DNA of 34,768 nt from Jimgerdemannia flammicorona (taxonomy: Eukaryota). Positions within the stretch are counted from its first letter, which is position 1. The number at the start of each line of letters is the position of its first letter. Both the position numbers and the translations under genes were made by a program. The notes beneath the pieces are model-generated. The model was not told where the DNA came from and did not search any database. It worked only from the letters and a program-made list of their open reading frames with translations. The stretch lies in contig RBNJ01000268.1 of assembly GCA_003990765.1 (NCBI GenBank), positions 1 to 34,768 of the forward strand. Direction: 5' to 3'. Positions 3,915-34,768 of the stretch are shown here, in pieces.

Positions 3915-6402
3915 TCAATACCTTCTCGAGAAATTCATTGCGGACCTGGGCCAAGAAGGGTGGAGAGATATAAAGGAAAGTACACAAGGACGCATGAGAC
4001 GCCAAATCCTCGAGTTCTGGCCGGCATAATGCGAAATGCTGTCACTCCTATGCGACTGAGGGTCCATGATCAAACTTACATCTTTGTTCCGGATAGATAC
4101 GCGTCCTCGAGCGCCGACTGCGTGAGCGACGAGTCTGCACGATGTTTGTCGAGTGCACCACATGTGAATTTAGATATGTAAAGCCATGATACAGATAAAA
4201 TAAGTAGGAAGCCCGATGCACGCCCCAACCGCGAATGGCTTTACACACCGCTCAGATCGCTATACGAGCTCCCCACCGAATTCTCGCTCGTCGTCGCCTC
4301 GTTGGGCGAGTCACCTCCCGTGTGTGGTTGAGCGCGTGTCCCCTGCGCTGACGATTCACGGTAGGTGTGTCTGCTGGTGGTCGTCGTCATTGCGGGTTTG
4401 GCGGACGCCGCAGCGGTCGGTAAGCCCGACTGCGGTGCTGGGTTGCGGGGAGGGGCTATCATGGAGCTGGGGCCGGGCGGGCGGGTGAGAACTGGTAGAG
4501 GGGTTAAAAACGAGAGGGATTACTAGTTTAGTGAGTGCCTATGGGTTTGCAGTGGACAAAAGCGGATGCTCAGTTGAACGGGGGGGGGGCATGCATCAAG
4601 ACCAGGCAAGAATCACGCACCTTGCGACGCGCTCATCAACCCAGCCCCCCCACCTGCTGCACTCCTCACCCTTCCTTGGCTCAATCTACTGCCCATTCCA
4701 CCTATATCTCCAGGCACCGGGGCCCCCTTGCCTCTCCCTATGTCTCTCAAATCCATCCTTCCAATAGCAAACGGTCCAGCCCCAGCCTCAGGCCCAGCCC
4801 CAGGTCCCGCCGCCCCCGCGGTACCCTTGGCAGGTAAGAAAGCAGGTTCAGCCTCGATTGTGAACTTTCCCGCCGCGAACCCAATCTCGTCCGTGGGCTG
4901 CTCACGCCTCCGCCGGCGCTCCTCCTCGTCGTAGTCGTCCGCGTCGTCGTCACTCTCGCTCCTCTCGCTGCCCGTCCTGCTGCTGTTATCACTCCGTCCG
5001 CCGTCGTCCGCGTCAAATCCGTGGTACGTGTCCTCCCTCTCTCCCCTCGCCAGTCCCTGGCCGACCGCGTCAAAGTACCTTGACCCTTCCGCCCTCACCG
5101 ACCCAGTGTCTGACCTGGACCGTCCGTCGGAGGCCAGCGAGGCCGTCGAGACCCGCGCGGGCGGCGGAGGGGTAGAGGGAATAGGCGGGAGCGGGGAGCG
5201 CGTGGGGGAGCCGCGCTGCGGGGCGGGGTACGTCGGGGAGGTGGGGTATTTGGGTGGGGAGTCGCGGATGCGGAGGGAAGCGGCCATATGGAGGGACGAG
5301 TTGGCCAGGTTGGTGAGAGACGTGGTGGAGGAGGACCGCGAGCCCAAGCCGGAGCCACGGTGGAGCATAGGACCAGGAGTGGGCGGCGAGTTGCGGATGC
5401 TGGGTTGTTGCGGGGGAGGGGAGGCGGGCAGGACGCGAGGCGATTGGGGGGTTGTGGAGGGGGGGCGGGCGGGAAGATCACGCGGGCTGTAGGGTTGGCG
5501 TGGAGTGTGGGGAGAGATGGGGGCTGCGTATGATGGTGTTGCGTTAGTCGTGTGTTATGGGTGAGTATGCGGCAGTTCTCAAGGAAAATGCATACCTAGA
5601 TCTCCACCTTCGGTTCCGCTTCTAACCGAAAGTCTCGATCCCGACAGGCTCGACCCGCTCAGCTGACGGCGATCCATAGCTGGGGCCCGGTTGTCGGGCG
5701 TAGTTGTGAGACGAGGGGGCCGGTGTTTTGGGTTTAGGCTATCACTGGGGCTTGTGTGGCGGGACACTGCTTGTCGGGAAATGGAAACGTCTCAGCAATA
5801 AATACGAGGTGGACCAACTAGCCGCGAATAGCCATCAGCTTCAATCAAAATAAGAATCGACACGCATGGCTGCTCCACACATACTCTCCGAGCTTCCTGC
5901 CGCGCCAATCGATCTATTGCTCATGTTCGAGTTTCTCCCACTAGCACTGGTGCTCGTCTTCGCATTCTGTAACTGCTGTTGCAAACCACGCAACTGCGTC
6001 TCAGCATGCCGGATAAGGTAGGCTGCGGGGACGTCCATCTGCCTTGAGATCAGGTTCCCTGAGCGGTAAACGAATAGCATGGCATGTGTGGAGAAGTTGT
6101 CGGAACACGGGTAGGGATTGAACGGATTCACGGGCTTCATGGCCAAGAAAAATAGAAGGGACTCACTAACAGTCAAGACTGGCCATTTTGTTCTGACTAA
6201 GGGTCTGCCAGAGCTGTTGCTCTTTCGCCTCGGTCCAGACGATCTGCGGTGAGGGTGATGCTCAATGACTTGTCCGACAAAACGCGAGACTAGGACGGAG
6301 AGCTGGTTGACTTACGGGGGGGGGCTCGACGAAGCCCGGCGGACGTTTGAATGGCAAACGTATTACGACGTGGAGAGATTCTTTTTCAGAGATGTTTGCC
6401 AT
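3915..6402 (-). CDS. ATG29: Autophagy-related protein 29 (Atg1 complex/Atg17-Atg31-Atg29 subunit), 8 exons
   Basis: GT-AG exons splice in frame: 6316-6402, 6171-6243, 5885-6058, 5596-5766, 4621-5523, 4249-4491, 4080-4134, 3915-3945. N-terminus VVIRLPFKRPPGFVEPPP-IVWTEAKEQQLW...LDWNLISRQMDVP and C-terminus SSYSDLSDSSLTQSALEDAYLS match Atg29 motifs; the middle is Ser/Pro-rich and disordered. Confidence 0.9.
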
Positions 6403-6512: not shown

Positions 6513-6737
6513 AAAAATCCTCGACTGTCCACCCTTGACTGTCCACCCTTTCAAAATCCTCGACTGTCCACCCTTTCAAAATCCTCGACTGTCCACCCTT
6601 TCAAAATCCTCGACTGTCCACCCTTTCAAAATCCTCGACTGTCCACCCTTTAAAAATCCTCGACTGTCCACCCTTTAAAATCCTCGGCTGTCCACCCTTT
6701 AAAAATCCTCGACTGTACACCCTTTAAAAATCCTCGA
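6513..6737. repeat. 25-bp minisatellite (AAAATCCTCGACTGTCCACCCTTT(C/A)), ~9 copies
   Basis: Near-identical tandem units are directly visible, with one partial internal duplication at ~6537-6551 and no spacers. Confidence 0.95.
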
Positions 6738-14467: not shown

Positions 14468-14749
14468 GAGATTCAATCTGAATTAATTTGAACTTTAAGT
14501 TACTTTAATATTTCTAACTAAACTTCAGAAGTCTAGCTAACTTTTACCAGAACTAAGAACTGATATATAAATCTAAAAAGGAAACCTCTTTGAACCTAAA
14601 TTATAAGAGATTCAGTCTGTTTATAGCAAGAACAAGTCTTTTAGAATTATAATTACTAAAGAAGAGTAATATCTTTATTTTACTATAAAGAAATAGTATT
14701 TTCTTAATCTTAATAAATACTACTAAGTAAAAGAATAATTGAAAGACTT

Positions 14750-15215
14750 TATAAGAGGGTTGCTTTTTAGGGTAACTATTACATAGTTCTGGAGGGTTTT
14801 CTGGAAGTTTTGGATATTCTGGAAGACTGTTTTCTTATGATCAGGATCAATTTTATATAGAGTATGTCCTCTATACTTATTGATTTCTAGATTGGATTAA
14901 TGTCTCAACTAAAGTCCTTTTTTCAGACTAGTTCTGGATGTTCAGGATTTTCCATATTTCAGGAAGTTAAAAAAACTAAGACTAGCTTAGTTGAATTGGT
15001 GTATCACTGCAGACAATACCCAATTAAGAAATTTCACGATTGGGTTAGAAGTGGGACCTAATGGGGAGTGGATTTACTTAAGAGTGATTTGTGGATTATT
15101 AAATAGATTTATTCACTATTCATGATATTGCTATACTAGGAGTAGTTGTATGAAGGGATATTGTGGGAAAGTGCTCAGAAGTTATATTCAGATTATTCAA
15201 GTATTCAAGTCTGTT
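14750..15215 (-). repeat. Family B LTR fragment (R-U5 end)
   Basis: Aligns with 23427-~23885 and 31447-~31910. The terminal TGTAAG has decayed to TATAAG, and no PBS is adjacent. Confidence 0.85.
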
Positions 15216-16328: not shown

Positions 16329-17367
16329 AATACTAACTCAAGGACAACACTATCTATTATAAGGATAGATTGTATGTTCCAAACAACTGAGACCTCCAAA
16401 GAACTATCCTATTTGAATGTCATGATGCCCCTATAGCTGGATATTTAGGATTTGACAAATACTATAAAGTTATTTCCCGAAACTTCTATTGGCCCCATAT
16501 GGCAGATCAGCTCAAGACCTACATTACTTCCTGTGATGCCTGCCAATGGAACAAGTCCTCAACACTAGCAAAACCTGACTTACTCTACCCTATCTCAGTA
16601 CCATCTGCTAATTGAGAACAAATCTCTATGGACTTCATTGTATAACTACTCTGAACCAAGAATAGGAAAGATGCAATTGTTATCTTTGTAAACTATCTCA
16701 GTAAACAAGCCCACTTTATATCAACTACCACCACTACAATAGTACTAGATATAGCTACACTCTTGTTTAATAACATCTTCTGCTATCATAGTCTTCCTAA
16801 GATCATTGTTAGTGACTAAGATCCAAAATTCACCAGCCATTTTTGGAAAGCCCTCTATGTACACCTTGGAATGAAACTTGCACTATCCACAGCCTTTCAC
16901 CCTGAAACTGATGACCAAACTGAAAGAATGGACTGAACTCTAGAACAAATGCTAAGAAACTATGTTTCCCACAGACAAGATGATTGGTATGAACACCTCA
17001 CTGCAGTTAAGTTTACCTATAATAATAGCAAGCAAGTCTCTCTTGGAATGACCTCATTCTTTGCCAATACTGGACAAAACCTAAACACCTCTTTGACACT
17101 CATCCAAACTACTGAAGAACTCTCCACAGTCGAAGCTATTGAAGAATTCTTACTCCGAATATGTAATCTAAGCCAGATTGCAATTGAGAATTTATCACGA
17201 GCTCAAGAACAACAGTCACAGTATGTTAACCAATACTGCCAAGAAGAAACCTTTAATATTGGAGAAAAAGTTCTACTAGACATCTGAGAATACTAAGTTG
17301 ACAACCTCAAAGCTGAACAGCAAGTTCATTGGACTATTTGAAGTTATTATACAAATCTCTCTGACCT
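16329..17367 (+). pseudogene. Family B integrase fragment (heavily mutated)
   Basis: HHCC region (CHDAP..G...CDACQ), ISMDFI and FHPETD motifs. Aligns with ~25660-26715 and is interrupted by the LTR at 17368. Confidence 0.9.
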
Positions 17368-19632
17368 TGTAAGCACACAACCTCTAAGCCACCAAAATTG
17401 TATAGCATCCTCAGCACTAATTTGGAAACCACATGCGAGACTACAAAACAAGTTACTGAAGAGATCATCTGGTTACATGAAATATGCCAGCAAGTATAAG
17501 AACCCACCATCAAGATATAAGAATACTAGAAGAAGTACTATAACCACAAGACTGACTCCAAATCACTATAACTAGTTTGGTGTACTGTACTATTACAAAA
17601 GGAAACTGAAAGTATCAAACTCAAATTGAGACAAGAAGAATCCTATCTCATCTACCAAAAGGTTCACAAATTGTACTTATCAACTCAAGACCAAGATATA
17701 CTGTGACTATACAAGACCTCATTACTTAGCAGAAGTAAAATGCATTTGAACAACTCTGTTTACTCTATCTGTGTTATCTCCATTAGAGAGTGACAGATGC
17801 TTCATCTGAACTCAAGAAAGCTGACATCATCGAAACCAATCTCAAACCATCCATGTGATAGATATTACTACTAGAAATTGCCTCGGATTACAGAAAATAT
17901 TATTTCCAAGAGGTTTGAACCACCAGCCATGATATTGGGAGTCCTCGCCCTAGACAAGAATGGCCAGTCCTCACAAATGCACCAGCAGACTAAAAAAAAA
18001 AGAGAACCAAGACCTGTTATCCTTGTGCAACCACTGCCACCAAGGACAGCCTTAATCTTGTAAGAGATAGAAGTAACGGCACCTTGAAACTAATGATATC
18101 AGAAGTCAGAAAACTACTCAGACTTTGCCAGAGATAATGTCATTAATAGTGATATCATCAAAGACTACCCAGACAGTGTCTAAACCTATAAATAGCTTAG
18201 CAGTCATAGTATAGTTAGATTAGCCTTATACGATGTGACTGTGAACTGACTCAGCAGTCAGATGATCTCTTGATATGTCAGATTACTCTTGTACTATGTG
18301 ACTGCATTCCAACTCAGTAAGATACTAAGTACTATAATCTATATCTAGTATAGTACAGATAGCCCCTCACTAGTATAAATACCCCCTCCCCCAGACCTCA
18401 GAATTACAGACCTGAATAATCTGAACACAACTCCTAAGCACTTTCTACAATATTCCTTTACACAACTACTCCTAGTATAGTAATATCATGAATAGCAAAT
18501 AAACCTATTTAATAACCCACAAACTACTCTTAAGTAAATCCACTCTCCATTAGATTCCATTCCTAACCCTATCACGAAATTTCCTAATTGGGTATTGTCT
18601 GCAGCAATACACCAATTCAACTAAGCTGGTCTTAATTTCTTGAACTTCCTGAAATATGGAAAATTCTGAACATCCAGAACTAGTCTGAAAAAGGACTTTG
18701 GTTGAGACATCAACCCGATCTTGAAATCAATAAGCATAAAGGATGTACTCTATATGAAATTGATCTTGACCTTAAGAAAACAGTTTTCCAGAATATTCAG
18801 AACTTCCAGAAAACCCTTCCAGAACTATGTAACAGTTATCCTAAAAAAGCAATCCTCTTACAACTTGGTAGCAGCAGTTTATAATCTAATTCCACTTCAA
18901 GATGCTTCCTCACCCTACTACAAACCCTTCTGAGAATTCCTACAAGTTGATATAAAGCCCAACCTCTGAACTGGAATTTATCTAAACCATCTGACAATCT
19001 GGAGAGAATTGAACCTGATGTATAAGGACAATTTGATCTCCATATCTGCAACAAGTGGGACAAACTTCATTCAAAGAAAGAAATACTCCAGTTAAATCAG
19101 TAAATAGGTGAAATTCTATTCACTGAACTCCTTGCTCTATACCTAGCAAGTCAAGATGAAGAAGGTCTTATAGAAGCCTTCTTTACTCTTCTCAACAAGA
19201 GTTTTTGTCAGCTTCACAAATCTGAGTGACCTAGGATAACCAGCAGCAGTCTTTTTAGCCTTAGTTCCTCATGAAGCCCAAGTCTCTGTAGCTAAGTGGC
19301 TCAACTCTACTGACTTTTACTACACCAGGACCAAGATCACATTATACTACCAATTCCAGAACAGCAAGGCCCACCATATTCTTAAAGAAGAAGCAAGAGA
19401 AACCCTTCATCAACTACCTGACTCTGAACCAGAAGCAGGCCCAGCTACAGCTCTACCTGAACCAGAAACCAATACCAAACCAGAACTGACTTTAAATTAA
19501 GTCCATCTGAAATCAGATATACAACTGATTCTGTCTACTTTGACACTGAGCAAACCCAATTACACAGGGACCAAACTGAAGAAGAGGAGGAGTATCTCAG
19601 TGAATTCGATCCTGGATACACTACTGAAGGGA
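17368..19632 (+). mobile_element. Truncated family B copy: 5' LTR (17368-18862), PBS and gag leader
   Basis: TGTAAG...CTTACA LTR of ~1495 bp with no PPT before it (it is inserted into the integrase), PBS at 18866. Inverted match to ~22660-24925. Confidence 0.88.
18866..18877 (+). promoter_or_regulatory. PBS (tRNA-iMet type)
   Basis: TGGTAGCAGCAG lies 3 nt after the LTR end. The other copies read TGGTAGCAGTGG and TGGTAGCAGCAG, implying ancestral TGGTAGCAGCGG, similar to the eukaryotic iMet 3' complement TGGTAGC... Confidence 0.75.
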
Positions 19633-19633
19633 C

Positions 19634-22600
19634 ACAGATAAAGCGAACAGAGTTGTTCAAATGCGTTTTGCTTCTACTAAGTAATGAGGTCTTGTATAGT
19701 CATGGTATATCTTGGTCTTGAGTTGATAAGTACAGTTCGTGACCTTTTGATGGGTGAGATAGGGTTCTTCTTGTCTTGATTTGAGTTTGGTACTTTTGGC
19801 TTCTTTGTAATAGTACAGTACACCAAACTAGCTATAGCGGTTCAGAGTCAGTCTTATGGTTGTAGTACTTCTTCTAGTATTCTTGTATCTTGGCAGTGGG
19901 TTCTTGTGCTTGCTGGCATATTTGTGTAACCAGATGATCTCTTCGGTAACTTGTTTTGTAGTCTCGCATGTGGTTTCCAAATTAGTTCTGAGGATACCAT
20001 GCGATTTTAGTGGCTTGGAGGTTGTGCGCTTACAACTCTCCCCTTCTTAGCTTTCGACGTCCTCATCAGGGTCTTCTAATTTGTTCTAGTGTTATTGTAC
20101 CATTTGGATGGTTCTTGTGGCTATTTTTGTTGAGGATTTGTTCAACCTTGTATTCTTCTTGGTCATTAATAATGACAGGTGCAGGTGGTTCTGTGGTTCG
20201 GTTTGGGAATGTGTCTCGGACCTTCTGGAGTAGTGGTCTGACATGGCTGTCAACTTTGGAAAAATCTTCTTCAGAGTTCTTGGGTTCTCCTTTGGATGGT
20301 CAGATGGAGATAGTAAAGAGAGGGCATTTCTTGGCCAATTTCTTGAGTTGTAGCTTATTGATGTGGGTGATCTTTGGTCCAGGGTCACTAGAGTTGAGTG
20401 GGTCCTTTTTGCCTTGTAGTTTGAAGTTGTGGCGTCCTTTCTTGATGGTCAGGGAATGGTTTACCCAATCAATCATGGAGTTCTCTTGTTTTAACCATGG
20501 AGTCCCAAGGATGATTTCATTGTCAGGAAGTGGTACGATTTGGAGGGTAACATGTACTCGGTAGTCGCCAATTCGGAAGGGTAGATTGCAGACTTCTTTG
20601 CTAATAACATGCGAGGTTCCATCAGCTGTAGCAACTGCTTGAGTTTGCTGTACTGGGGAGGTGAAGACCTTGAGTCTGTTTGCTGTCTCTTCATTGATGA
20701 AGTTGCCTGAGGCACCACTGTCTATCATAATCTTGACAGGTGCTCCATTGACAAAAGCTTTAAGGGTGAGCAGTTTGTCTGATCCAATTGTGGTGATTTC
20801 GGTTGTAGGAGCCTTTCTTCTGTTGGTTCTTCTTTGAGCCAATTCGTTGACACAAGAGAAGCAATCATCAATCATTCGGGAAGAGTACATTTCAATACCA
20901 TGAGGGCATCGGCCACTTGGTACATATCCATCTTCTATCTTCTTGTAGAATTGTTCTTCTTTGCTTACAGTAGGTTGGGCTGGGGCCTTGTTTGATGAGC
21001 CAAATCCTTTGGATCCTCAGATGGTGGGTAGTAGTTCAGGGACTTCCTTGACTGTCAGGGTTGACTCAATTTTTTCGAATAGGATCTGGGCGATGCAGAA
21101 GCCAATAGGGATCTTGAAGGGTGTCCAACTGTGGTTTCAAATGAGGACAATAATTTCGCCTGTATAATCTTCGTCAATGATTTCTCCTTCTACTGAAAGT
21201 CCTTTCAGTGCTAGGCTGCTGCGACAGCATATTCTTCCAACATGTCCTTCAGGGATTTGGATACTGATTCCTGTATAGACTTGTTTGACTTCTCGGTTGG
21301 AAACTGTAGCTTCTTCGGCTGCATACAGGTCATATCCAGCTGCTTTTTGACTTCCTTTGGTTGGGGCCTTAGTAGTTTGTCTTAACTTGACAAAGTCTAG
21401 TATTTTGGTGGTCAGGTTGTTGAGGTGGTGCAGAGTAGTAACAGTTGCTCGTGTTGCTGTTCGGGGTTTTTGGTTGGGGCAGACACTGGCCATGTGTCCT
21501 GTCTTTCGGCAATAGAAGCATGCTCCACTTCTTCGAAGTTCATTCCTTTCGCCTTCAGTGAGTTTCTTGAAGGTACTCAGCTGGGTGGGTTCATGATTTC
21601 TGGGTGTCCACGAGGTGGATGTGGAGGGAGCTTGGGATGCTTCATGTTTGGGTTCTTCTTTCTTAGTCCAAGTCTTTTCCTTGTTATTGAATTGCCTTCG
21701 GGACAGAATTGGTCCAGTTGTTAGGATTCGCTTGACCATAGTCTTGATTCTTGCCAGGCACTATTGTTGGTGATTGCAACCAACTGGGCAGCCTTGTTCT
21801 CGGATTTTTCTAGTAAGCCATTCAGGCAGGGCATCGAATAAATGGTCTGCTCTTGTACCATTTCGTGCTTCATCATTGGCAATGTATCCTAGGCCAACAG
21901 TGTTCAGGAGTGACTTGAGTTTTGTACAGAAGGTTTCGAATTCTTCTTTGCCATGTACATCAAATTTGAGGTTGCAGAGTTTTACTTGAGATTCAGCAAT
22001 CATGGTCTTGCTGCGATATTGTGCAATCATGAGTTGTTTGAGTCCAGGGGCTGCAGGATGGGCTCCATATCCTGGGGCATTGTTTGCTGCATTCTGAGCA
22101 ACTACTGCAGGTCGGATATCCCATGTGAGGGGTTTTTCAGGAAGCGTTCGCCACCATTCTTCGGCAGGTCCTCGGAAGAATGTAACAACTCGGTGGACAT
22201 AGGCTGTAGTCATAGCAAAGAGTTGTTCCAGGGTGTAGTCTTGATTATTTGTCAGAACGCGGTCAGCAACTCGCTCATTGGTCCATTGATTGGCTTCAAA
22301 GTTGGTGTCAACTATACTAATGAAGCTTTGGACTTCTTGTGCAGTACCATTGAAGGTAGGTAGGCTCAGATTTTTGGTAGGTTGGGTCTGTTCAGCTAAG
22401 GTAGTAATGGTTGCTGCCATTATAGCCACTTGGGCTGTGAGGTCTAGAATCTGTTGGTTCGCCATGTTGTTTACTAGAGGTGGCTGGACTGCTGGTAGTG
22501 GTGTTACTGGTACTACTTGAGGTACTGGTACAGAGTGTGATGGGGTTCTTTGGGTCTGTGTAAGTTGCTGGAGTAGTAGTTGTGGATCTGGAGTGAGGGC

Positions 22601-24925
22601 TTGATAGATAGCTGTTTGTTGCTGTGTAGGTGTATTCTGTCCTGATGGATGTGTGTCTCCTTTGGTGGTGTATCCGGAATCGAATTCAGTGAGATACTCC
22701 TCCTCTTCTTTGGTTTGGTCCCCATGTAATTGGGTTTGCTCGGCGTCAAAGTAGACAGAATCAGTTGTATATCTGATTTCAGATGGACTTAATTCAAAGT
22801 TGAGTTCAGGTTTGGTATTGGTTTCAGATTCAGGTAGGGTTGTAGTAGGGCCTGCTTCAGGTTTAGGATCAGGTAGTTGATGAAGGGTTTCTCTTGCTTC
22901 TTCCTTAAGAATATAGCAGGCCTTGCTGTTCTGGAATCAGTAGTATAAGGCGGTCTTGGTCCTGGTGCAGTGAAAGTCGGTAGAGTTGAGCCACTTGGCT
23001 ACAGAGGCTTGGGCTTTGTGAGGAACTAAGGCTAGAAAAACTGCTGCTGGTTGTCCTAGGTCACTCGGATTTGTGGAGCTGACAAAACTCTTATTGAGAA
23101 GAGTAAAGAAGGCTTCAATAAGACCTTCTTCGTCTTGACTTGCTGGGTGTAGTGCAAGGAGTTCGGTGAATAGGGTTTCACCTATTTGCTGGTTTAACTT
23201 GAGTACTTCTTTCTTTGAATGAAGTTTATCCCACTTGTTGCAGGTGTGGAGGTCAAATTGTCCTTGTACGTCAGGTTCAATTCTCTCCAGATTGTCAGAT
23301 TGTTCAGATAAATTCCAGTTCAGAGGTTGGGCTTTATACCAACTTGTAGGAATTCACAGAAGGGTTTGTAGCGGGGTGAGGAAGCGTCTTGAAGCGGAAT
23401 TGGATTGAAAACCACTGCTACCAAGTTGTAAGAGGGTTACTTTTTAGAGTAGCTGTTACGTAGTTCTAGAAGGTTTTCTGAAAGTTCTGAATATTCTGGA
23501 AGACCGTTTTCTTATGGTCAAGATCAATTTTGTATAGAGTACATCCTCTATGCTTATTGATTTCAAGATCGGGTTGATGTCTCAACCAAAGTCCTTTTCC
23601 GGACTAGTTCTGGATGTTCAGGATTTTCCGTATTTCAGGAAGTTTAAGAAACTAAGACCAGCTTAGTTGAATTGGCGTATCACTGCAGACAATACCCAAT
23701 TAGGAAATTTCGTGATGGGGTTAGGAGTAGGACCTAACAGGGAGCGGATTTACTTAAGAGTGGTTTGTGAGTTATGGAATAGGTTTATTTGCTATTCATG
23801 ATATTGCTATACTAGGAGTACTTGTGTAAAGGGGTATTGTGGGGAAGTGCTCAGGAGTTGTGTTCGGATTGTTCAAGTCTGTTTGAGTCTGAGATTCTGA
23901 GGTCTGGGGGAGGGGGTATTTATACTAGTGAGGGGCTATCTAGACTATGCTAGATATGGATGTAGCACTAAGTGCCTTGCTGAGTCGGAATGCAGTCATG
24001 TAGTACAAGTGTGATCTGACATGTCAAGAGATCATTTGACTGCTGAGTCAGTTCACAGTTACATCATACAAGGCTAATCTAACTATACTATAACTGCTAG
24101 ACTATTTATAGGTTTAGGTACTGTCTGGTTAGTCTTTGATGACATCACTATTGATGACATCATCACTGGCAAAGTCTGAGCAGTTTTCTGACTTCTGACA
24201 TCATCAGTTTTCAAGATATCGTCACTTCTATCTCTTGTAAGATTAAGACTGTCCTTGGTGGCGGTGGTTGTACAAGGATAACAGGTCTTGGTTCTCTTTT
24301 TTTTTGGTCTGCTGGCACATTTGCGAGGACTGGCCATTCTCGTCTAGGGCGAGGGCTCCCAATATCACGGCTGGGGGTTCGAACCTCTCGGAAATGATAT
24401 TTTCTGTAATCCGAGGCAATTTCTAGTAGTAATATCTGTCACATGGATGGCTTGAGATTGGTTTCGATGTTGTCGGCTTTCTTGAGTTCAGATGAAGTGT
24501 CTGTCACTCTCCAACGGAGGTGATACAGATAAAGCGAACAGAGTTGTTCAAATGCGTTTTGCTTCTACTAAGTAATGAGGTCTTGTATAGTCATGGTATA
24601 TCTTGGTCTTGAGTTGATAAGTACAGTTCGTGACCTTTTGATGGGTGAGATAGGGTTCTTCTTGTCTTGATTTGAGTTTGGTACTTTTGGCTTCTTTGTA
24701 ATAGTACAGTACACCAAACTAGCTATAGCGGTTCAGAGTCAGTCTTATGGTTGTAGTACTTCTTCTAGTATTCTTGTATCTTGGCGGTGGGTTCTCGTGC
24801 TTGCTGGCATATTTGTGTAACCAGATGATCTCTTCGGTAACTTGTTTTATAGTCTCGCATGTGGTTTCCAAATTAGTTCTGAGGATACCATGCGATTTTA
24901 GTGGCTTGGAGGTTGTGCGCTTACA
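19634..24925 (-). mobile_element. Young non-autonomous family B copy: 5' LTR 23427-24925, PBS, Gag-dUTPase-PR, PPT, truncated 3' LTR 19634-20034
   Basis: The LTRs differ at only ~3 of ~400 shared bp. PBS at 23412-23423, PPT AAGAAGGGGAGAG at 20036-20048. RT, RNase H and integrase are deleted. Confidence 0.9.
20090..22465 (-). pseudogene. Gag-zinc knuckle-dUTPase-protease polyprotein fused to a chromodomain stub
   Basis: ORFs 21761..22465, 21137..21739 and 20300..20890 are in the same frame, separated by single TAG/TGA stops. Motifs: CFYCRKTGHMASVC; dUTPase AAGYDL, RSSL, IIDEDYTGEI, IAQI, (R)GSKGFGSS; protease IMIDSGASGNF. Confidence 0.9.
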
Positions 24926-25339
24926 CATTTGATCCTGATTAGTAAGATTCTGTTTGTGTATATCTTGTGTTCTGTGACTTTGTATTGACTCAGCTTTGTG
25001 TGCTGTAACTTCAGTTTGACTCAGCTTTGTGATCAAGCAGGTGATTTTCAGATTTGTTCAGAGGTCGTATGTGATTTCAGTGGCTTGTTCAGAGGGTGAT
25101 GTGTAATTTCGGTGGCTTGGAGGTTGTGTGCTTACAACTCTCCCCTTCTTAGCTTTCGACATCCTCGTTGGAGCTTTCTAATTTTATTCAGTAGTACAGG
25201 GAAAATAGGCTTGCTTTCAGTTTTGCTATTTTCCAGAGGGTCAGTATTCTTGTCTTGTTTTGCTGAGTTCTTGGTTTGGTTTGCAATAATTATAATGTCT
25301 GGAAGGATAATATATAGTATGTATGGATAGGTGTGGAGT

Positions 25340-28300
25340 ATTTGGTTCTAGTTGTTCAAGGAATCATATTCCTGAACTAGGTCGGTAGCATTCTGGAGAT
25401 TGGTCTTGGGTTCCCAGGTTGCATTGTGGATCAGGTAACCTTTCTATTTGACAAGGTACTCAGGGTGGCTCTTATTACTATATTTGTTGAGGATTTGTTC
25501 AACTTCATACTCTTCTTGATCATTAATAATGACAGGTGCAGGTGGTTTGGTGGTCCAGTTTGGAAATAGCTTGTCATCATTCTCATTATATCACTTGAGA
25601 CGTTGAACATTAAAGACTGGGTGAATCTTAATGGTGTCCAGTAGTACCAATTTGTAGAAGGTTGGAGAGACTTGTGCAATAACTTCAAATGGTCCAATAA
25701 ACTTACTGTTCAGCTTTGTAGATGGTCTGTGCTTGAGGTTGTCAACTCAGTATCCTCTGATGTCCAGTAGAACTTTTTCTCCAATATCAAAGGTTTCTTC
25801 TCAGTGGTATTGGTTAACATACTGTGATTGTTATTCTTGAGCTCATGATAAATTCTTGATTGCGATCTGGCTTAGATTGTGCATTCAAAGTAGGAATTCT
25901 TCAACAGCTTCGACTATAGAGAGTTCTTCAGTGGTTTGGATAAGTGTCAAAGGGGTGTTTGGGTTTTGTCCAGTGTTGGTGAAGAATAGGGTCATTCCAA
26001 GAGAGGCTTACTTACTATTGTTATAGGTAAACTCAACTGCAGTGAGGTGTTCATGCCAATCATCTTGTCTGTAGGAAACATAGTTCCTTAGCATTTATTC
26101 CAGAGTTCAGTTCATTCTTTCAGTTTGGCCATCAGTTTCTGGGTAAAAGGCTATAGATAGTACAAGTTTTGTTCCAAGGTGTATATGGAGGGCTTTCCAA
26201 AAATGGCTGGTAAATTTTGGGTCTCGGTCACTAACAATGATCTTGGGAAGACCATGATAGTAGAAGATGTTGTCAAACAAGAGTGTGGCTATGTCTGGTG
26301 CTATTGCAGTAGTGGTAGTAGGCACAAAGTGGGCTTGTTTGCTGAGATAGTCCACAAAGACAACAATTGCATCTTTCCCATTCTTAGTTCAGGGTAGTTG
26401 TACTATGAAGTCCATAGAGATTTGTTCCCAATTCACAGATAGTACTGGGATAGAGTGAAGTAAGCCAGGTTTTGCTAGTGTTGAGGACTTGTTTCATTGG
26501 CAGGCATCACAGGAAGTAATGTAGGTTTTGAGCTGATCTGCCATGCAGGGCCAATAGAAGTTTCGGGAGATAACTTCATAACATTTATCAAATCCTAAAT
26601 GTCCAGCTGTAGGGGCATCATGATATTCAAATAGGATAGTCCTTCAGAGGTCTCAGTTGTTTGGAACATACAGTCTGTCTTTATAGTAGATAGCATTGTC
26701 CTTCAGTTGGTATTGATGATACTGTGTATGCTTGTCAGTATCATCACTATTTAGGATTTCTCACAGTGTTTGAGCTTCCTTATCATTGGCATGTGCTGTG
26801 ATAATTTGTTCTATGATAGAGTTTATAACCAAGGTGAGAGTTTGGATAACCTCTTCGATTAGTGGTCTGGATATTGTATCAGCAACAATATTTTCCTTAC
26901 CAGAGTGGTACTAGATTTCATAGTCAAAGTTGGTGAGGACTTTCATCCATCTGGCTTGCTTTTGAGAAAGGGTAGTCTGTGTCTTGATATTGACTAATGA
27001 TTTGTGGTCAGTCAATATGGTGAAGTGTGCTCCTTCTAGGTAGGGTTGCCATTTGATCAGAGTATCTATGATGGCTAGCATTTCCTTCTTGTGGGTTACA
27101 TAGTTAATTTCAGCATCATTGAACTTGTGGGAGTGATAGGCCACAGGGTGTCCTTCTTGCATGGGTACTGCTCCAAGGGCTAGGTCAGAGGCATCAGTGG
27201 TAACTTCATATGACAGTGTAGGATTTGCCGCTTGAAGTACTGGAGTAGTTATCAGGGTATCCTTTAGTGCTTGAAAGGCGATATCTTGCTCAGGTCCCCA
27301 AGTTACAAGATTGTAGAAGTCTTTTTCTTGTTTTATGGTCCAGGGTTGTTCTTATTTCTTGCTATGCTTGGTCATTTAGATGAGGGTGGTAGCAATTTTA
27401 GTAAAGTTGGCAACAAATTACCTGTAATAGTTTGCTAATCCCAGGAATGACTAGAGGTATTTCAGTTTCTTGGGTCTGGGCCAATCCTTGATTGCAGAGA
27501 TTTTGCTAAGGTCCACTTTGATTCCATTTGGAGTGACAATGTGTCCAAGGAATTGAATTTCTTTTAGGAGAAATTCGCACTTGCTGAGTTTTGCAAAGAG
27601 TCAGTTTTCTCAGAGTTTCAGTAGTACTAGTTCAAGGTATTCAAGATGTTCCTCCAGGGTTTTGCTGAAGACTAGGATGTCATCAATGTAGACAACAACG
27701 AATTTGTCCAGATATGGATGCAGAATGGTATTCATCAGTATCTGGAAGGTTGCTGGAGCATTAGTTAAGCCAAAGGGCATAACCAGGAACTCGAAGTATC
27801 CATAGCGAGTTTGGAAAGCTGTCTTGTAGATGTCTTCTTCTTTCATAACAATTTGCCAATAGCCATTTCGCAGGTCAAAAGAGCTCATGAATTGTGGGTT
27901 GGTAAGTCTATCAAATATTTCATCGATCCTTAGTAGTAGACAATAGTTCTTGATGGTCTGTTCATTGAGATTGCAGTAGTTAATACATATTCGCAGGTCT
28001 CCTCCTTTTTTGACAACAAAGAGGACTGGTGCGCCATAGGGTGATACACTGGGTCTGATGAATTCTTGTTCTAGGAGTTTATCAATTTCTTTCTTGAGTA
28101 CATCAATTTCTCTCAGAGACATATGGTAGATTGACTTGAAGGCTGGTTTGGTATCTGGAATAGTCTTGATGGCATAGTCTACCACTCGTTTAGGAGGTAG
28201 GCCTTTTGGGAGTTTCTTTGGGAATATGTCTCGAAATTTCTGGAGTAGTGGTCTGATATGGCTGTCAACTTTGGAAAAATCTTCTTCAGAGTTCTCAGGT

Positions 28301-30484
28301 TCTCCTTTGGATGGGCAGATGGAGATGGTGAAGAGAGGACATTTCTTGGCCAATTTCTTAAGTTGTAGCTTATTGATGTAGGTGATCTTTGGTCCAGGGT
28401 CACCAGAATTAAGTGGGTCCTTTTCGTCTTGCAGTTTGAAGTTGTGGCATCCTTTCTTGATGGTCAGAGAATGGTTTATCCAATCGATCATAGGGTTCTC
28501 TTGTTTTAACCATAGAGTCCCAAGGATGATTTCATTGTCAGGAAGTGGTACAATTTGGAGGGTAATATGTACTCAGTAGTCACCAATTTGGAAGAGTAGA
28601 TTGTGGACTTCTTTGCTAATAACATGTGAGGTTCCATCAGCTATAGCAACTGCTTGAGTTTGCTATACTGGAGAGGTGAAGACCTTGAGTCTGTTGGCTG
28701 TCTCTTTATTGATGAAGTTGCCTGAGGCACCACTGTCTATCATAATCTTAACAGGTGCTCAGTTGACAAAAGCCTTAAGTGTGAGCAGTTTGTCTGATCC
28801 AATGGTAGTAATTTCAGTTGTAGGAGCTTTCCTTCTATTGGTTCTTCTTTGTGCTAGTTCATTGACACAAGAGAAGCAATCATCAATCATTTGGGAAGAG
28901 TACATTTCAATGTCATGAGAGCATTGGCCACTTGATACATATCCATCTTCAATCTTCTTATAGAATTGTTCTTCTTTGCTCATGGTAGGTTGGGCTGGGG
29001 CCTTGTTTGATGAGCCAAATTCTTTGGATCCTCAGATGGTGGGCAGTAGTTCAGGGACTTTCTTGACTGTCAGAGTTGACTCGATTTTTTCGAATAGGAT
29101 CTGGGTGATGCAGAAACCAATAGGGATCTTGAAGGGTATCTAACTATGGTTTTGGATAAGAACAATAATTTTGCCTGTGTAATCCTTGTCAATGACTCCT
29201 CCTTCTACTAAGAGTCCTTTCAATGCTAGGCTGCTGTGACAGTATATTCTTCCAACATATCCTTCAGGGATTTGGATGCTGATTCCTGTATAGACTTGTT
29301 TGACTTCTCGGTTGGAAACTGTAGCTTCTTCGGCTGCATACAAGTCATATCCAGCTGCTTTCTGACTTCCTTTGATTGGGGCCTTAGCAGTTTGTCTTAA
29401 CTTGACAAAGTCCAGTGTTCTGGTAGTCAGGTTGTTGAGGTGGTACAGAGTGGTAACAGTTGCTTGTGTTGCTGTTCGGGGTTTTTGGTTAGGGCAGGCA
29501 CTGGCCATGTGTCCTGTCTTTCAGCAATAGAAGTATGTTCTGCTTCTTTGAAGTTCATTCCTTTCACCTTCAGTAAGTTTCTTGAAGGTACTTGGCTGAG
29601 TAGGTTTATGATATCTAGGTGTCCAAGAGGTGGATGTGGAGGGAGCTCAGAATACTTCATGCTTAGGTTCTTCCTTCTTGGTCCAAGTCTTTTCCTTGTT
29701 GTTGAATTGTCTTCAGGGCAGAATTGGTCCAGCTATTAGGATTCGCTTGACCATAGTCTTGATTCTTACCAGGTATGTACCATTGTTGGTGATCACACCC
29801 AACTGGGCAGCCTTGTTCTCAGATTTTTCTAGTAAGCCATTCAGGCAGGGCATCAAATAAATGGTCTGCTCTTGTACCATTTCGTGCTTCATCATTGGCA
29901 ATATATCCTAGGCCAACAGTGTTCAAGAGTGACTCAAGTTTTGTACAGAAGGTTTCGAATTCTTCTTTGCCATATACATCAAATTTGAGGTTATGCAGTT
30001 TTACTCAGAATTTGGCAATCATGGTTTCACTGTGATATTGAGCAATCATGAGTTGTTTGAGTCCAGGGGCTGCAGGATGGGCTCCATATCCCAGGGCATT
30101 GTTTGCTATATTCTGGGCAACTACTGCAGGTTGGGTATCCCATGTGAGGAATTTTTCAGGAAGGGTTCACCACCATTCTTTGGCAGGTCCTCAGAAAAAT
30201 GTAACAACTTGGCAGACATAGGCTGTAGTAGTAGCAAAGAGTTGTTCCAGAGTGTGGTCTTGATTGTTTGTCAGAGTGTGGTCAGCAACTTGCTCATTGG
30301 TCCATTGATTGGCTTTGAAGTTGGTATCAACTATACTAATGAAGCTTTGGACTTCTTGTGCAGTACCATTGAAGGTAGGTAGGCTTAGATTTTTGGTAGG
30401 TCTGGTCTGTTCAGCTAAGGCAGTAATGGTTGCTGCTATTATGACTACCTGGGCTGTAAGGTCTAGAATCTGTTAGTTCACCAT
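25340..30484 (-). pseudogene. gag-dUTPase-PR-RT-RNase H-integrase-chromodomain polyprotein with many stops and frameshifts
   Basis: RT: KTAF...[23 protein letters not shown] (27610..28491). RNase H: TDASD...PVAYHS...EMLAI...ILTDHKSL. Integrase: IVSDRDPKFTS...YPETDGQTER. Chromodomain: EEYEVEQIL...YLVK.KGY...ATWEP (~25360-25520). dUTPase at ~29010-29415. Confidence 0.93.
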
Positions 30485-32133
30485 ATTGTTTACTGGAGGT
30501 GGTTGGACTGCTGGTAGTGGTGTTACTGGTACTACTTGAGGTACTGGTGCAGAGTGTGATGGAGTTCTTTGGGTCTGTGTAAGTTACTGGAGTAGTAGTT
30601 GTGGGTCTGGAGTAAGGGCTTGATAGATAACTGTTTGTTGCTGTGTAGGTATATTCTGTCCTGATGGAGGTACTTCTCCTTCGGTGATATATCTGGGATC
30701 GAATTTACTGAGATACTCCTCCTCTTCTTTGGTTTGGTCCCTATGTAATTGGGTTTGCTCAGTATCAAAGTTGATAGAATCAGTTGTATATCTAATTTCA
30801 GATGGACTTAATTCAAAGTTAAGTTCAGGTTCAGTATTGGTTTCAGATTCAGAGAGGGCTGTAGCAGGGCCTGCTTCAGGTTCAGGGTCAGGTAGTTGAT
30901 GAAGAGTTTCTCTTGCTTCTTCTTTAAGAATATGGTGGGTCTTGCTATTCTGGAATTAATAGTATAATGCGGTCTTGGTCCTGGTATGGTGAAAGTCGGT
31001 AGAGTTGAGCCACTTGGCTACAGAGGCTTGGGCTTTGTGAGAAACTAAGGCTAGAAAGACTGCTGCTGGTTATCCTAGGTTGCTTGGATTTGTGGAGCTG
31101 ACAAAACTCTTGTTGAGAAGAGTAAAGAAGGCTTCAATAAGACCTTCTTCATCTTAACTTGCTGGGTGTAGTGCAAGGAGTTCAGCAAATAGGGTTTCAC
31201 CTATTTGTTGGTTTAATTGGAGTACTTCTTTTTTTAAATGAAGTTTGTCCCACTTGTTGCAGGTGTGGAGGTCAAATTGTCCTTGTATGTCAGGTTCAAT
31301 TCTCTCTAGATTGTCAGATGGTTCAGGATAAATTCCAGTTCAGAGGTTGGGCTTTATACCAACTTGTAGGAATTCTCAGAAGGGTTTATAGTGGGGTGAG
31401 GAAGCATCTTGAAGTGGAATTGTATTGAAAACTGCTGCTACCAAGTTGTAAGAGAGTTGCTATTTAAGGTAACTGTTACATAGTTCTGAAAGAGTTTTCT
31501 GGAAGTTCTAGATGTTCTGGAAGACTGTTTTCTTATGGTCAAGATCAATTTCATATGGAGTACATCCTCTACACTTATTGATTTCAATATCGGGTTGACA
31601 TCTCAACCAAAGTCCTTTTCTCAGACTAGTTCTGGGTGTTCAGGATTTTTCATATTTCAGGAAGTTCAAGAAACTAAGACCAGCTTAGTTGAATTGGCAT
31701 ATCACTGCAGACAATACCCAAGTAGGAATTTTCATGATAGAGTTAGGAGTGGGACCTAACAGGGAGTAGATTTACTTAAGAGTGGTTTGTGGGTTATTAA
31801 ATAAGTTTATTCACTATTCATGATATTGCTATACTAGGAGTTGTTGTGTAAAGGGATATTGTGGAAAAGTGCTCAGGAGTTGTGTTCAGAATGTTCAAGT
31901 ATTCAAGTCTGAGATTCTGAGGTCTGGGGGAGGAGATATTTATACTAGTGAGAGGCTATCTGGACTATGCTTGATATGGATGTAGTACTAAGTACTTTGC
32001 TAAGTCAGAATGCAGTCATGTAGTACAAGTGTGATCTGATATATCAAGAGATCATCTGACTGCTGAGTCAGTTCACAGTTACATTGTATAAGGCTAATCT
32101 AACTATACTATGACTGCTTAGGCTATTTATGGT

Positions 32134-33380
32134 TTAGGTACTGTCTGGGTAGTTCTCGATGACATCACCATCGATTGCATCATCTCTGATGAAGTAGTCA
32201 TCTAGGAAGAGTGGTTCGTGGATTACTTCTCCTTGTTTGCTGAGGTAATAATATATTGGAACTTCATCTCCATTCTACAAGATGGCATCATCAGTCTCAT
32301 ATGCTAAATAAGGTATTGGTGGGCAAAGGAGGGGTACATTGTCTTCACTTTCATCAGATTCACTGTCTGCATACCTTCTGTAGGTTACAGCACTATAAGT
32401 CATGGGGTTATAGTAAGCAGGGGGCTGTGGTTCATGTCACTTATACTCAGGTGGTAGAGTGGTTGGTTCAATCTTGAGGGTTGTCTGGAGGTACAGGTTG
32501 TGTTCTCCAGTTTCTTCATTGTAGTTGAAGTAATTGAGAGTGAAAGCAGGTTGGTATTCATGCCAGTGGTCATTGTCCCAATAAGTCTTGTATGCTGTTA
32601 TGAATTGTTATAAGTTCATCAGCAAGATTGGCAGTGTGATCAGGGTTGGCAGAGATCCTTGGCTAGAGGTCATATCAGCATCAGAGGGATCATTGTCTTC
32701 TGCTTTGTCTTCATCGAAGTGGATTATATCATAGATGTCCTTCATGGTATATCCAACTTGGGGCATTTGCAGGATGTGATCATTGGGGTGTGGGAAGGTT
32801 CTGTCTGTGGTTTTGATGTACTCGAGGTACTTGTGGTTAAGTTCTTGTATCATGTCATCGATTTGGCCATAGGACAGAGTAGCAACCATTTTGGCTGTGG
32901 TAACTCGGAGACAGGGAATAATAATGCTATACTCATAGAAGAGTTCTCGATGTTTGCAGGCAATGAGCTTCTGGTGTTGAGACATCTGGGTTATATCTAT
33001 ATCATAGTGGTGTTCGATCATGTCTTCCAGGAGGTAGCCGATCTGGTAGTAACTTGAGATTTGTCCGATTCAGTGGGCCTCACTAAGCATGTTTAGAGCA
33101 TTCCATCAGGCTTCTACAAAGTAGAGGGGTGCTAGGCTATGGATATTCATGAGGGGCAAAGAGGGTGTGGCTCGGTTGACAATGGCATTTCAAATATCAG
33201 CGCAGATATGGGTATAGATCTCGGTGGTTATGTTTGTGTGTTTTGGAAGTTATAGTTGTTGTTTGTTTTTGGTTCTCTGATTTGATGCATCTCGGTACTC
33301 AGTATATATGTATTTGATCCTGATTGGTAAGATTCTGTTTGTGTAAATCTTGTGTTCTGTGACTTTGTATTGACTCAGCT
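32134..33380 (-). pseudogene. Decayed protein-coding cargo ORF inside U3 of the 2.1-kb LTR
   Basis: The 137-aa ORF 32608..33021 extends upstream in frame through three TGA (CGA-derived) stops and one TAA, and downstream with frameshifts to ...DDAIDGDVIENYPDST*. Confidence 0.6.
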
Positions 33381-34090
33381 TTGTGCACTGTGACTTTGGT
33401 TTGACTCAGCTTCATGATCAAGCAGGTGATTTCCAGATTTGTTCAGAGGTCGCATGTGATTTCAGTGGCTTGTTCAGAGGGTGATGTATAATTTCAGTGG
33501 CTTGGAGGTTGTGCACTTACAAGAGCTGTAGATCCTAAGAAGAGCACAAGATAAAACAGGTCGTGCTGGGGAAATTTAAATAAGTAAAAAGTAGTAGCAG
33601 AAAAAAGCAACCTATATCTACTACTGGCTGCTCCAAAAAGGCTACTATATACATAACTGTGAGGTCTGTGAATTCCAAGGTCTGAAGGGCTGCTGTGAGT
33701 TATTGTCAGAATTCACCCTCATCCCTGCCATTGCTGTCACCATTGCTATTGCCATTGCTATTGCCACTGCCATCACTCCTTTGGCTCTCAATGAGCAGCT
33801 TGTGTGCTGCCCATATAAGAAAGAATCTAACATTGTCAGCAGAGAGTGTATTTCCACCTTAAATACTCCCTCTTTTGATAATCATTACAGGGTGAAAATG
33901 AGTAAACTGGACCAACATATGAATTAAGGGCTGCTGTTTTGTTTGCTTGTGATGCGGCAGGAAAGAACAAAGAAAAAGAATAAAGAAAAGAGAGGGAACA
34001 AAAGAAAAGGGTGATGTCACCAAAGTGCAGCAGGAAAAAAAAAACAAGAGCAAAATAAACAAAAGAAAGAGTGATGTCACCAAAGATTTC

Positions 34091-34175
34091 AATCCAGATA
34101 GATCAATCCAGATAGATCAATCTGGATGGATCAATCTGGATGGATCAATCTGGATAGATCAATCTGGATCAGATC
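34091..34175. repeat. 14-bp tandem repeat AATC(CA/TG)GAT(A/G)GATC, ~6 copies
   Basis: Directly visible. It resembles the termini of the 13963-14467 foldback, and 34226-34246 matches that terminus. Confidence 0.75.
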
Positions 34176-34768
34176 ATGAGACCAATCTGAGTTGATTCAA
34201 ATCTATCATATGACAAACCTGAATCAAATCTCATCTGGATCAACTCTATTTGTTTGGAGTACTAATCTGATCTCTACAGATAAATATAGAGATATGTTCT
34301 TTTTGGCAAAATATTTACCTTATAGACTAATCATCAAGCTCTTTGATATATCTAGATACAGCCAATTCTCATAGAAAGACAGATCTGATAAATGTAGATC
34401 TTTATACTATTTGATGTCAAAATCAAGCTTATTGCTAGAACTAAGAATAAAGTAGACAATATACTCTCTCAAAGTACTCAGAAAGATGATCTTATTACAA
34501 TTAGTAATATTGTTACCAGCCTATTCAAAGAAGTCAAGAAGGAGTATATTAAAGATATTAATATATAAGAAATTTTCAAAAAAATTCTCAAAGAAGACAG
34601 TAATATTACAAAAAAGATCTATAAGAATATATCTATCCAAAATAGATATATATACCTTAATAATATAAGAATATTGATTCTAGATACTCTTATCTATTTA
34701 TGAATCCTATAAGAACTATATAATATATCTATAACTAGATATATAGGTTTTAACAAGATATACTAACA

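Follow-up and report, generated by a model that had tools for sequence, protein, structure and literature searches.

The stretch analysed here, 34,768 nt of Jimgerdemannia flammicorona DNA on contig RBNJ01000268.1 (the window; all element coordinates are positions in the whole stretch), contains long terminal repeat (LTR) retroelements between 19.6 and 33.5 kb, which open frames and Pfam domains place on the minus strand. One of these, element 2, has an unusually organized 5' LTR of 2,075 bp (31447..33521, minus strand, TGTAAG...CTTACA), delimited by self-BLAST and pairwise BLAST. Within the U3 (unique 3') part of this LTR lies a sense-strand gene, now a pseudogene, of 365 codons plus a stop codon (32134..33231, minus strand, stop at 32136-32134, frame 0), to which we refer as the U3 gene.

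The remainder of element 2 is that of a chromovirus. Its primer binding site (PBS), TGGTAGCAGCAG, lies directly behind the 5' LTR (31432-31443, minus strand), and the internal region (25138..31446, minus strand) encodes gag followed by dUTPase, protease (PR), reverse transcriptase (RT), RNase H, integrase, SH3 and chromodomain segments as identified by Pfam. The matches of pol include RVT_1 (7e-30), RT_RNaseH (3e-30), Integrase_H2C2 (5e-19) and rve (5e-7) and, toward the C-terminus, SH3_Tf2-1 (4e-14) and Chromo (8e-12, residues 1398-1446 of 1450); the dUTPase (3e-29) maps to 29000-29400 on the minus strand, where it is flanked by the zinc knuckle of gag on one side and the protease on the other. 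A polypurine tract (PPT), GAAAGCTAAGAAGGGGAGAG (25138-25157, minus strand), precedes the 3' LTR copy, of which the first 211 nt of the long type are left directly behind it (24927..25137, minus strand; 93% identity between 25137->24927 and 33522->33312). The pol order PR-RT-RNase H-integrase with a C-terminal chromodomain makes element 2 a chromovirus, and TG...CA ends, PBS and PPT are those of a chromovirus LTR element. Domain order, the TGTAAG...CTTACA ends, PBS and PPT thus agree with the chromovirus assignment made in an earlier note on this DNA.

The U3 gene begins 290 nt past the start of the LTR and ends 2 nt before the TATA-like CATAAATAG. It is interrupted by six internal stops (33192-33190, 33108-33106, 33072-33070, 32610-32608, 32439-32437 and 32277-32275), every one of which is a single transition away from a sense codon. 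Over the 324-codon core, stops number 5, 17 and 34 in the three sense frames; the corresponding counts in pol (1450 codons) are 29, 69 and 115. The frequency of G at codon positions 1, 2 and 3 is 0.265, 0.099 and 0.130 in the U3 gene and 0.254, 0.119 and 0.123 in pol. When the sequence was shuffled with dinucleotides preserved, the fewest stops in any of the six frames averaged 15.2, and six or fewer were obtained in 7 of 5000 shuffles. A codon-usage model trained on the element's own pol against the pol off-frames gave +130.7 bits for the frame of the U3 gene and -39 to -247 for the other five frames, with gag, as a control, at +74.7.

Two database proteins are related to the predicted product. 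A HMMER search of 1,835,955,588 representative proteins returned P0002 (247 residues, ENA metagenome, E 1e-97, 65% identity), which ends at the same ...YPDS residues, and P0003 (128 residues, JGI metagenome, E 8e-61, 83% identity), which has a Met at the proposed start of the U3 gene. Together they tile the whole gene, and both frames are open. A word-index search found the same two among 180 candidates at shorter lengths, and none among 656 candidates of near length. The six stops of the window copy align to W, R, R, Q, Q and W in the relatives; the earlier note had called the upstream stops C>T revertible. Where P0003 has its initial Met, the start codon of the window copy is ATA, with an in-frame stop 7 codons upstream. 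In tblastn each relative aligns in a single unbroken stretch, and the window copy is therefore without a frameshift; the two indels against the relatives, of 2 residues each, are both in frame. A further hit, P0004, a repeat protein of 1598 residues (E 8e-6) matching in nine short stretches on query residues 351-389, was rejected as compositional. Pattern searches for the relatives' DNA gave 74 and 92 matches in metagenome contigs, 1 in viral sequence and 29 and 56 in genomes, and none was confirmed. One relative is nameless and the other annotated as 'hypothetical protein'. The protein family is thus new, being represented by two fragments from soil sequence among 1.84 billion representative proteins, and as these metagenome fragments are the only matches, a resemblance that the earlier note had suggested to extra open reading frames (ORFs) of gypsy elements in Mucoromycota and Glomeromycota was not recovered.

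Because stops, periodicity, shuffles, codon usage and relatives agree, the U3 gene is real coding sequence: the long U3 holds a genuine sense-strand protein-coding gene, now decayed. The decayed sense frame of roughly 400 codons described earlier is therefore real, with its length corrected to 365 codons by the Met of P0003 and the upstream stop. Its stop density, 1.6 per 100 codons (6/365), is like the 2.0 per 100 of pol (29/1450), and the gene was therefore probably no less intact than pol at the time of integration; since then it would have decayed by transitions at the rate of pol. The wider pattern of decay is seen by comparing 20202-24168 with 28217-32188, which differ by 373 substitutions, 328 of them transitions. 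The long-LTR copy has T where the other copy has C at 140 sites and the reverse at 62, and 70 of 144 C/T sites are followed by A (background 32%), such that CpA is over-represented. This fits either a process like repeat-induced point mutation (RIP) or deamination of methyl-cytosine and proves neither.

The LTRs of the family occur in the window in two types, which we compared by self-BLAST and sensitive pairwise BLAST. The short type is complete in element 1 (23427..24925, minus strand, 1,499 bp) and also occurs on the plus strand (17368..18862, element 3). Long and short LTRs share a part on the R/U5 (repeat and unique 5') side, 31447..32195 (minus strand, 749 nt), which is 88.3% identical to 23427-24175 over its length and 86.4% identical to the plus-strand copy. 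At the U3 end approximately 31 nearly identical nucleotides (TGTAAG...) are common to both types, past which similarity fades over about 40-90 nt (matches of 69-74% across 72-118 nt). Between the shared ends the U3 interiors (long type, approximately 1.25-1.3 kb; short type, approximately 0.68-0.72 kb) gave no BLAST alignment. Variation is hence confined to U3 before the TATA motif, and the 3' half of the LTR is conserved. The common ends and the unalignable interiors of about 1.3 and 0.7 kb had been reported in the earlier note, and they stand when the minus-strand orientation of the elements is taken into account (33521 -> 31447); its coordinates, lengths and quoted peptides are likewise correct on that strand, the peptides in frame 0. 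The terminal peptide on which both U3 types were said to converge also exists, but as a mere result of the shared 749 nt, because these begin about 20 codons upstream of the stop and so hold the last ~20 codons of the gene and the stop itself.

No coding signal was found in the short U3 interior by codon usage, substitution positions, indels or stops in the two copies. Codon usage singles out no frame (0.3, 18.1 and 20.7 bits in one copy; 11.6, 4.1 and -14.2 in the second). The 73 substitutions between the copies are spread evenly over codon positions (26, 24 and 23), and the indels between them are of 1, 2 or 10 nt. In one of the copies a single frame is poor in stops (5 in 238 codons, equalled in 53 of 2000 shuffles), a count that is not repeated in the second copy (742 of 2000 shuffles). 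Since the short U3 is without coding signal and the short LTRs retain only the last ~20 codons of the U3 gene, the family shows presence or absence of one gene and not two alternative genes, and the proposal of two exchangeable cargo segments is not supported. Among the LTR copies that span the U3 interior in the window the gene is present in one of three, and the truncated copy at 19623-20034 is also of the short type.

Upstream of the gene the long U3 has a leader of 290 nt (33232..33521, minus strand) with two tandem arrays (33439-33504, 32 nt x 2.1; 33350-33412, 31 nt x 2.0; both minus strand), the TATATA-type motif ACATATATAC (33302-33311, minus strand) about 70 nt before the gene start, and three upstream ATGs (33455, 33415 and 33290, minus strand) located by motif scan. 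The last of these opens a 20-codon frame (33290-33228, minus strand) that ends over the start codon of the gene and might couple or hinder its translation. Downstream, beginning 2 nt past the stop, is the TATA-like CATAAATAG (32123-32131, minus strand), which reads CTATAAATAG in the short LTRs. A motif scan of the minus strand located a second TATAAATA downstream of CATAAATAG, a GTATAAATATC motif at 31935-31945 and AATAAA at 31806-31811. From these motifs the shared 749 nt presumably comprise promoter, R and U5. By any reading of the TATA-like and AATAAA motifs the gene is located in U3, and with the limits of U3 so placed it lies wholly within it, in sense and upstream of the LTR TATA, as sag does in the mouse mammary tumour virus (MMTV). 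In retroelements the genomic RNA supplies U3 from its 3' end, and U3 is hence doubled into both LTRs. By this mechanism of reverse transcription a gene located in U3 would be downstream of pol, at the 3' end of that RNA.

Whether the gene belongs to the LTR was also assessed from contigs of four public sequencing runs (three soil metagenomes and one organism, from three studies), compared over 25138-34200; the best word share of the matching runs was 0.21, and contig depth was not taken as copy number. The gene is covered by contigs of all four runs, each of which covers all 30 bins, and the contig pieces listed for each run cover parts of the gene with approximately 8-17% differences. One soil-metagenome contig joins 33519 to 25138, that is, the PPT to the start of the LTR. 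Another contig, 33137-33384, spans the position-211 breakpoint and the start codon and so bridges the leader and the beginning of the gene. The flank upstream of the long LTR (33523-34200) is covered by many contigs from all four runs and is therefore probably another repeat and not unique host DNA.

The predicted protein is acidic (isoelectric point, pI, 4.4; 57 D+E against 18 K+R). Residues 1-143 are about neutral and predicted to be helical, and the C-terminal ~220 residues (pI 4.1, approximately 9% Tyr and 10% Pro) are probably disordered. In Pfam, at E values up to 1, the only match was RAMP (0.042, below the cutoff and a chance match); P0002 and P0003 had none, and there was no homology to Sag, Nef or Bel proteins among the Pfam families. 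PDB sequences gave nothing better than E 0.36. The Protein Atlas held no usable match for P0002 (Atlas model with a predicted local distance difference test score, pLDDT, of 0.39); for P0003 it gave scores of 0.90-0.93 with 131-155 shared features, which are below the 170 given by the Atlas for matches within one family and are leads at most. AlphaFold2 on a three-row alignment gave a mean pLDDT of 30.2, and P0003 alone gave 51.3 with an all-helical model. Foldseek against PDB found no match at E <= 0.001 (best 0.9), so that the structural comparison proposed in the earlier note yielded low-confidence models and no fold match. In P0001, residues 368-371 and 457-460, PPAY (PLAY in P0002) and the C-terminal YPDS(T/I/V), are in our estimation reminiscent of the PPxY and YPxL-type late-domain motifs of Gag.

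We consider it probable, at roughly 0.6, that the U3 gene is a complete accessory gene of this element lineage, carried inside a chromovirus LTR and decayed after integration, and that the short LTR is a gene-less form. On this model the 2,075-bp repeat would be the 5' LTR of a decayed minus-strand chromovirus in which the 365-codon gene (33231->32134) was placed between the 290-nt leader and the TATA-like motifs, R and U5 of the LTR. The gene would travel downstream of pol and be copied into both LTRs in every cycle, and the 1.5-kb LTR type would be the same LTR with the last ~20 codons of the gene left. Its product would be an orphan acidic protein with a helical N-terminal part of ~140 residues and an acidic, Tyr/Pro-rich C-terminal part of ~220 residues. 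Expression may be from a short transcript of its own, initiated downstream of the TATATA motif, which is ~70 nt ahead of the start codon, and terminated at the AATAAA of the LTR, or from a spliced or subgenomic RNA of the sag or nef kind. The upstream ATGs, the repeats and the TATATA motif lead us to a slight preference for the former. As to what the protein does, its acidic-hydrophobic composition allows the guess that it might act in trans on the transcription or silencing of the element.

Several points weigh against this interpretation. The main gap is that neither in the window nor elsewhere was an element seen whose two LTRs both carry the gene. The gene-bearing LTR is complete only once in the window, the gene beyond nt 211 is single-copy there, and the 3' end of element 2 keeps just those 211 nt. 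Each of the two relatives is the sole member of its cluster, the contigs being 998 and 1180 bp long; they were compared at the protein level, and as databases list open frames only, their intactness is partly a selection effect. The gene could also be a passenger useless to the element, and with models too poor to use (mean pLDDT 30 and 51) its function is a guess. With respect to expression, the three upstream ATGs disfavour translation from any transcript spanning the complete leader. In its 5' untranslated part the decayed element contains no consensus splice donor (of five GTRNGT sites in the 8.4 kb scanned, one is at the first bases of the LTR and four are in the integrase part). There were no RNA runs among the sequencing runs that match the stretch, which has no bearing on whether the gene is expressed.

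The passenger explanation, in which a host gene or fragment was transduced into the U3 of one sublineage and amplified without serving the element, would account for the lack of homology to retroelement proteins and Pfam families and for a gene present in one of two LTR types, the gene-less type being the commoner in the window. A review (PMC7264820) describes such capture in plant elements, where it affects a single copy or a few. We nevertheless consider a passenger unlikely. The codon usage of the gene matches that of pol, its stop density is like that of pol, so that it was probably open at integration, and it fits between the leader and the TATA-like motif, ending 2 nt before the motif. 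Even at 65% identity a relative has kept an open frame, in-frame indels and an equal C-terminal end, which speaks for maintenance over a long time, and no homologue outside transposable elements was found among the 1.84 billion proteins. A different departure, distinctly unlikely in our view, would make the long LTR a self-contained mobile gene, such that any LTR, even a solo one, might express the protein. With its helical head and acidic, Tyr/Pro-rich tail the protein would then trans-activate the LTR promoter of the family or blunt silencing by the host, with gene-less elements as free riders. Here the 31-32-nt repeats would be enhancer-like, the TATATA of the leader would serve as promoter motif, and the polyadenylation signal would be that of the LTR itself. 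If true, this would be the first accessory gene wholly in the LTR of a non-retroviral LTR retrotransposon.

Since the segment beyond nt 211 is single in the window, it could also have been joined to a truncated LTR by chimera formation or rearrangement, and would then not have been duplicated at retrotransposition. The locus is heavily nested and rearranged, and one metagenome contig is itself rearranged, running from 33522 back to 32722. This is made improbable by the canonical TGTAAG end with which the segment opens right after the flank, by the presence of the first 211 nt behind the PPT both at the 3' end of the same element and in another contig, by the contig 33137-33384, which crosses 211/212 into the gene, and by the last 20 codons, which lie in the shared part of the LTR and are kept by the short LTRs. 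That the interior is unalignable to the short LTRs, at a locus where nesting is common, might instead point to an unrelated transposable element nested in the LTR, the frame being a gene of that element. Such an element should have termini of its own, and the check for them proposed in the earlier note found no terminal inverted or direct repeats at the segment borders (the best inverted pair was 11 nt at 91%). Moreover, on the 5' side similarity to the short LTR fades gradually, with no sharp break. The gene is in sense, has pol-like codon usage and continues into shared LTR sequence, and it has no Pfam match to a transposase or RT. A nested element is thus highly improbable. The strand is poor in T and G, and this A/C-rich, T-poor composition could in principle leave a frame open by chance, as in the stop-poor frame of one short U3 copy (5 in 238 codons; 53/2000 shuffles). 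Two database proteins at E 1e-97 and 8e-61, periodicity and codon usage like those of pol, and a stop count met in 7 of 5000 shuffles speak otherwise, and the HMMER relatives together with codon usage effectively refute a chance frame.

The 3' LTR of element 2 is cut off where element 1 begins, 1 nt past position 211, which is most simply explained if a younger element with short LTRs inserted in the 3' LTR of an older one with long LTRs. The body of element 1 has an internal deletion, and its truncated 3' LTR (19623..20034, minus strand) retains the initial 412 nt of a short-type LTR (98.3% to 24514-24925) and is cut at 19623 against the plus-strand copy. The LTR of element 3 has internal sequence on both flanks, a 3' pol part before it and a PBS/gag part after it. 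The arrangement of the LTRs in 16329-25137 is nested or tandem. A further LTR fragment of the family (14749..15213, minus strand) comprises the last 465 nt, is 87-88% identical to all three LTRs and is of a U3 type not readable from the fragment; the sequence at 33522+ and that at the end of this fragment, 14749, gave no matching target-site duplication. The nearest proteins to the pol of element 2 share no more than 50% identity with it and are taxonomically scattered (plants, algae, fungi, animals and metagenomes). Among them, P0069 and P0081 (ENA metagenome, 1120 and 1964 residues, 47% to pol) combine dUTPase with chromovirus domains, and P0081 is on a 28.7-kb contig. Outside the elements, 14 ORFs gave no informative Pfam match, and an Rfam scan of the window gave no matches. 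The region 4000-6000 is G+C-rich (59-62%) with long ORFs on both strands and no Pfam match, a tandem repeat of ~64 nt occupies 6514-6737, and an ORF with a CCHC zinc knuckle (1047-1592, minus strand; Pfam 1.4e-4) probably represents gag of a further retroelement.

A U3 that houses an accessory gene is characteristic of a small number of complex retroviruses. In MMTV, a betaretrovirus, the superantigen gene sag lies inside the U3 of the LTR, and nef of the human and simian immunodeficiency viruses (HIV and SIV) and bel2/bet of the foamy viruses overlap U3. By analogy with sag, nef and bel, the U3 gene is in sense and upstream of the LTR promoter, so that genomic RNA would carry it at the 3' end and each duplication of the LTR would duplicate the gene as well. 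Unlike these it has no sequence similarity to them, its carrier is a chromodomain Ty3/gypsy element without env, and it is known here from DNA alone. A promoter of its own in the leader, if the gene has one, would presumably be a difference from sag. If the gene is a maintained one, LTRs would offer room for genes in elements other than retroviruses, the dose of the gene would double with each insertion, and it would survive in solo LTRs. Gene-bearing and gene-less LTR types that have one promoter half provide a natural comparison for the use of the gene to the element.

In phrase searches of open-access full text, an ORF in the LTR or U3 of a retrotransposon was found for retroviral cases only, which is no proof of absence elsewhere. 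Extra genes of Ty3/gypsy elements are otherwise placed 3' of pol. The additional ORFs (aORFs) reviewed for LTR retrotransposons of plants have their place downstream of pol and ahead of the 3' LTR (PMC7264820), and an 'add. ORF' is drawn for fungal chromoviruses (PMC2864245), where dUTPase-bearing chromoviruses are also reported from basidiomycetes and Tuber. These reports are the one hint that the dUTPase of element 2 gives of a fungal affinity. Like these, the U3 gene is an extra Ty3/gypsy gene of unknown function, 3' of pol and without homology to gag or pol. Unlike the aORFs it belongs to the LTR and not to the internal region, as both the PPT and the TGTAAG end precede it; a phrase count of the review (PMC7264820) gave zero for 'in the LTR', 'within the LTR' and 'inside the LTR'. 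A novel accessory protein is also carried by the Ty3/gypsy element Cer1 of Caenorhabditis elegans, the CERV protein of which, according to the text available of PMC10309623, is made from a spliced mRNA and serves the export of genomic RNA. By analogy, CERV shows what a gene such as the U3 gene could do. In that text CERV is not reported in U3, and the two were unrelated in sequence in the whole-library HMMER scan.

The closest parallel to the two LTR types is offered by crapaud of Podospora, the LTR subfamilies of which differ in the half of U3 before the TATA box, with some elements having LTRs of different subfamilies and with decay of the RIP type (PMC10787394, in part). As in crapaud, a conserved 3' half of the LTR is combined with non-homologous U3 variants upstream of TATA. 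The variable part in crapaud is less than 200 bp, with no coding reported in the same part of that paper, whereas one of the variants described here is approximately 1.3 kb and coding. The U3 gene is therefore sag-like in architecture and outside every known protein family.

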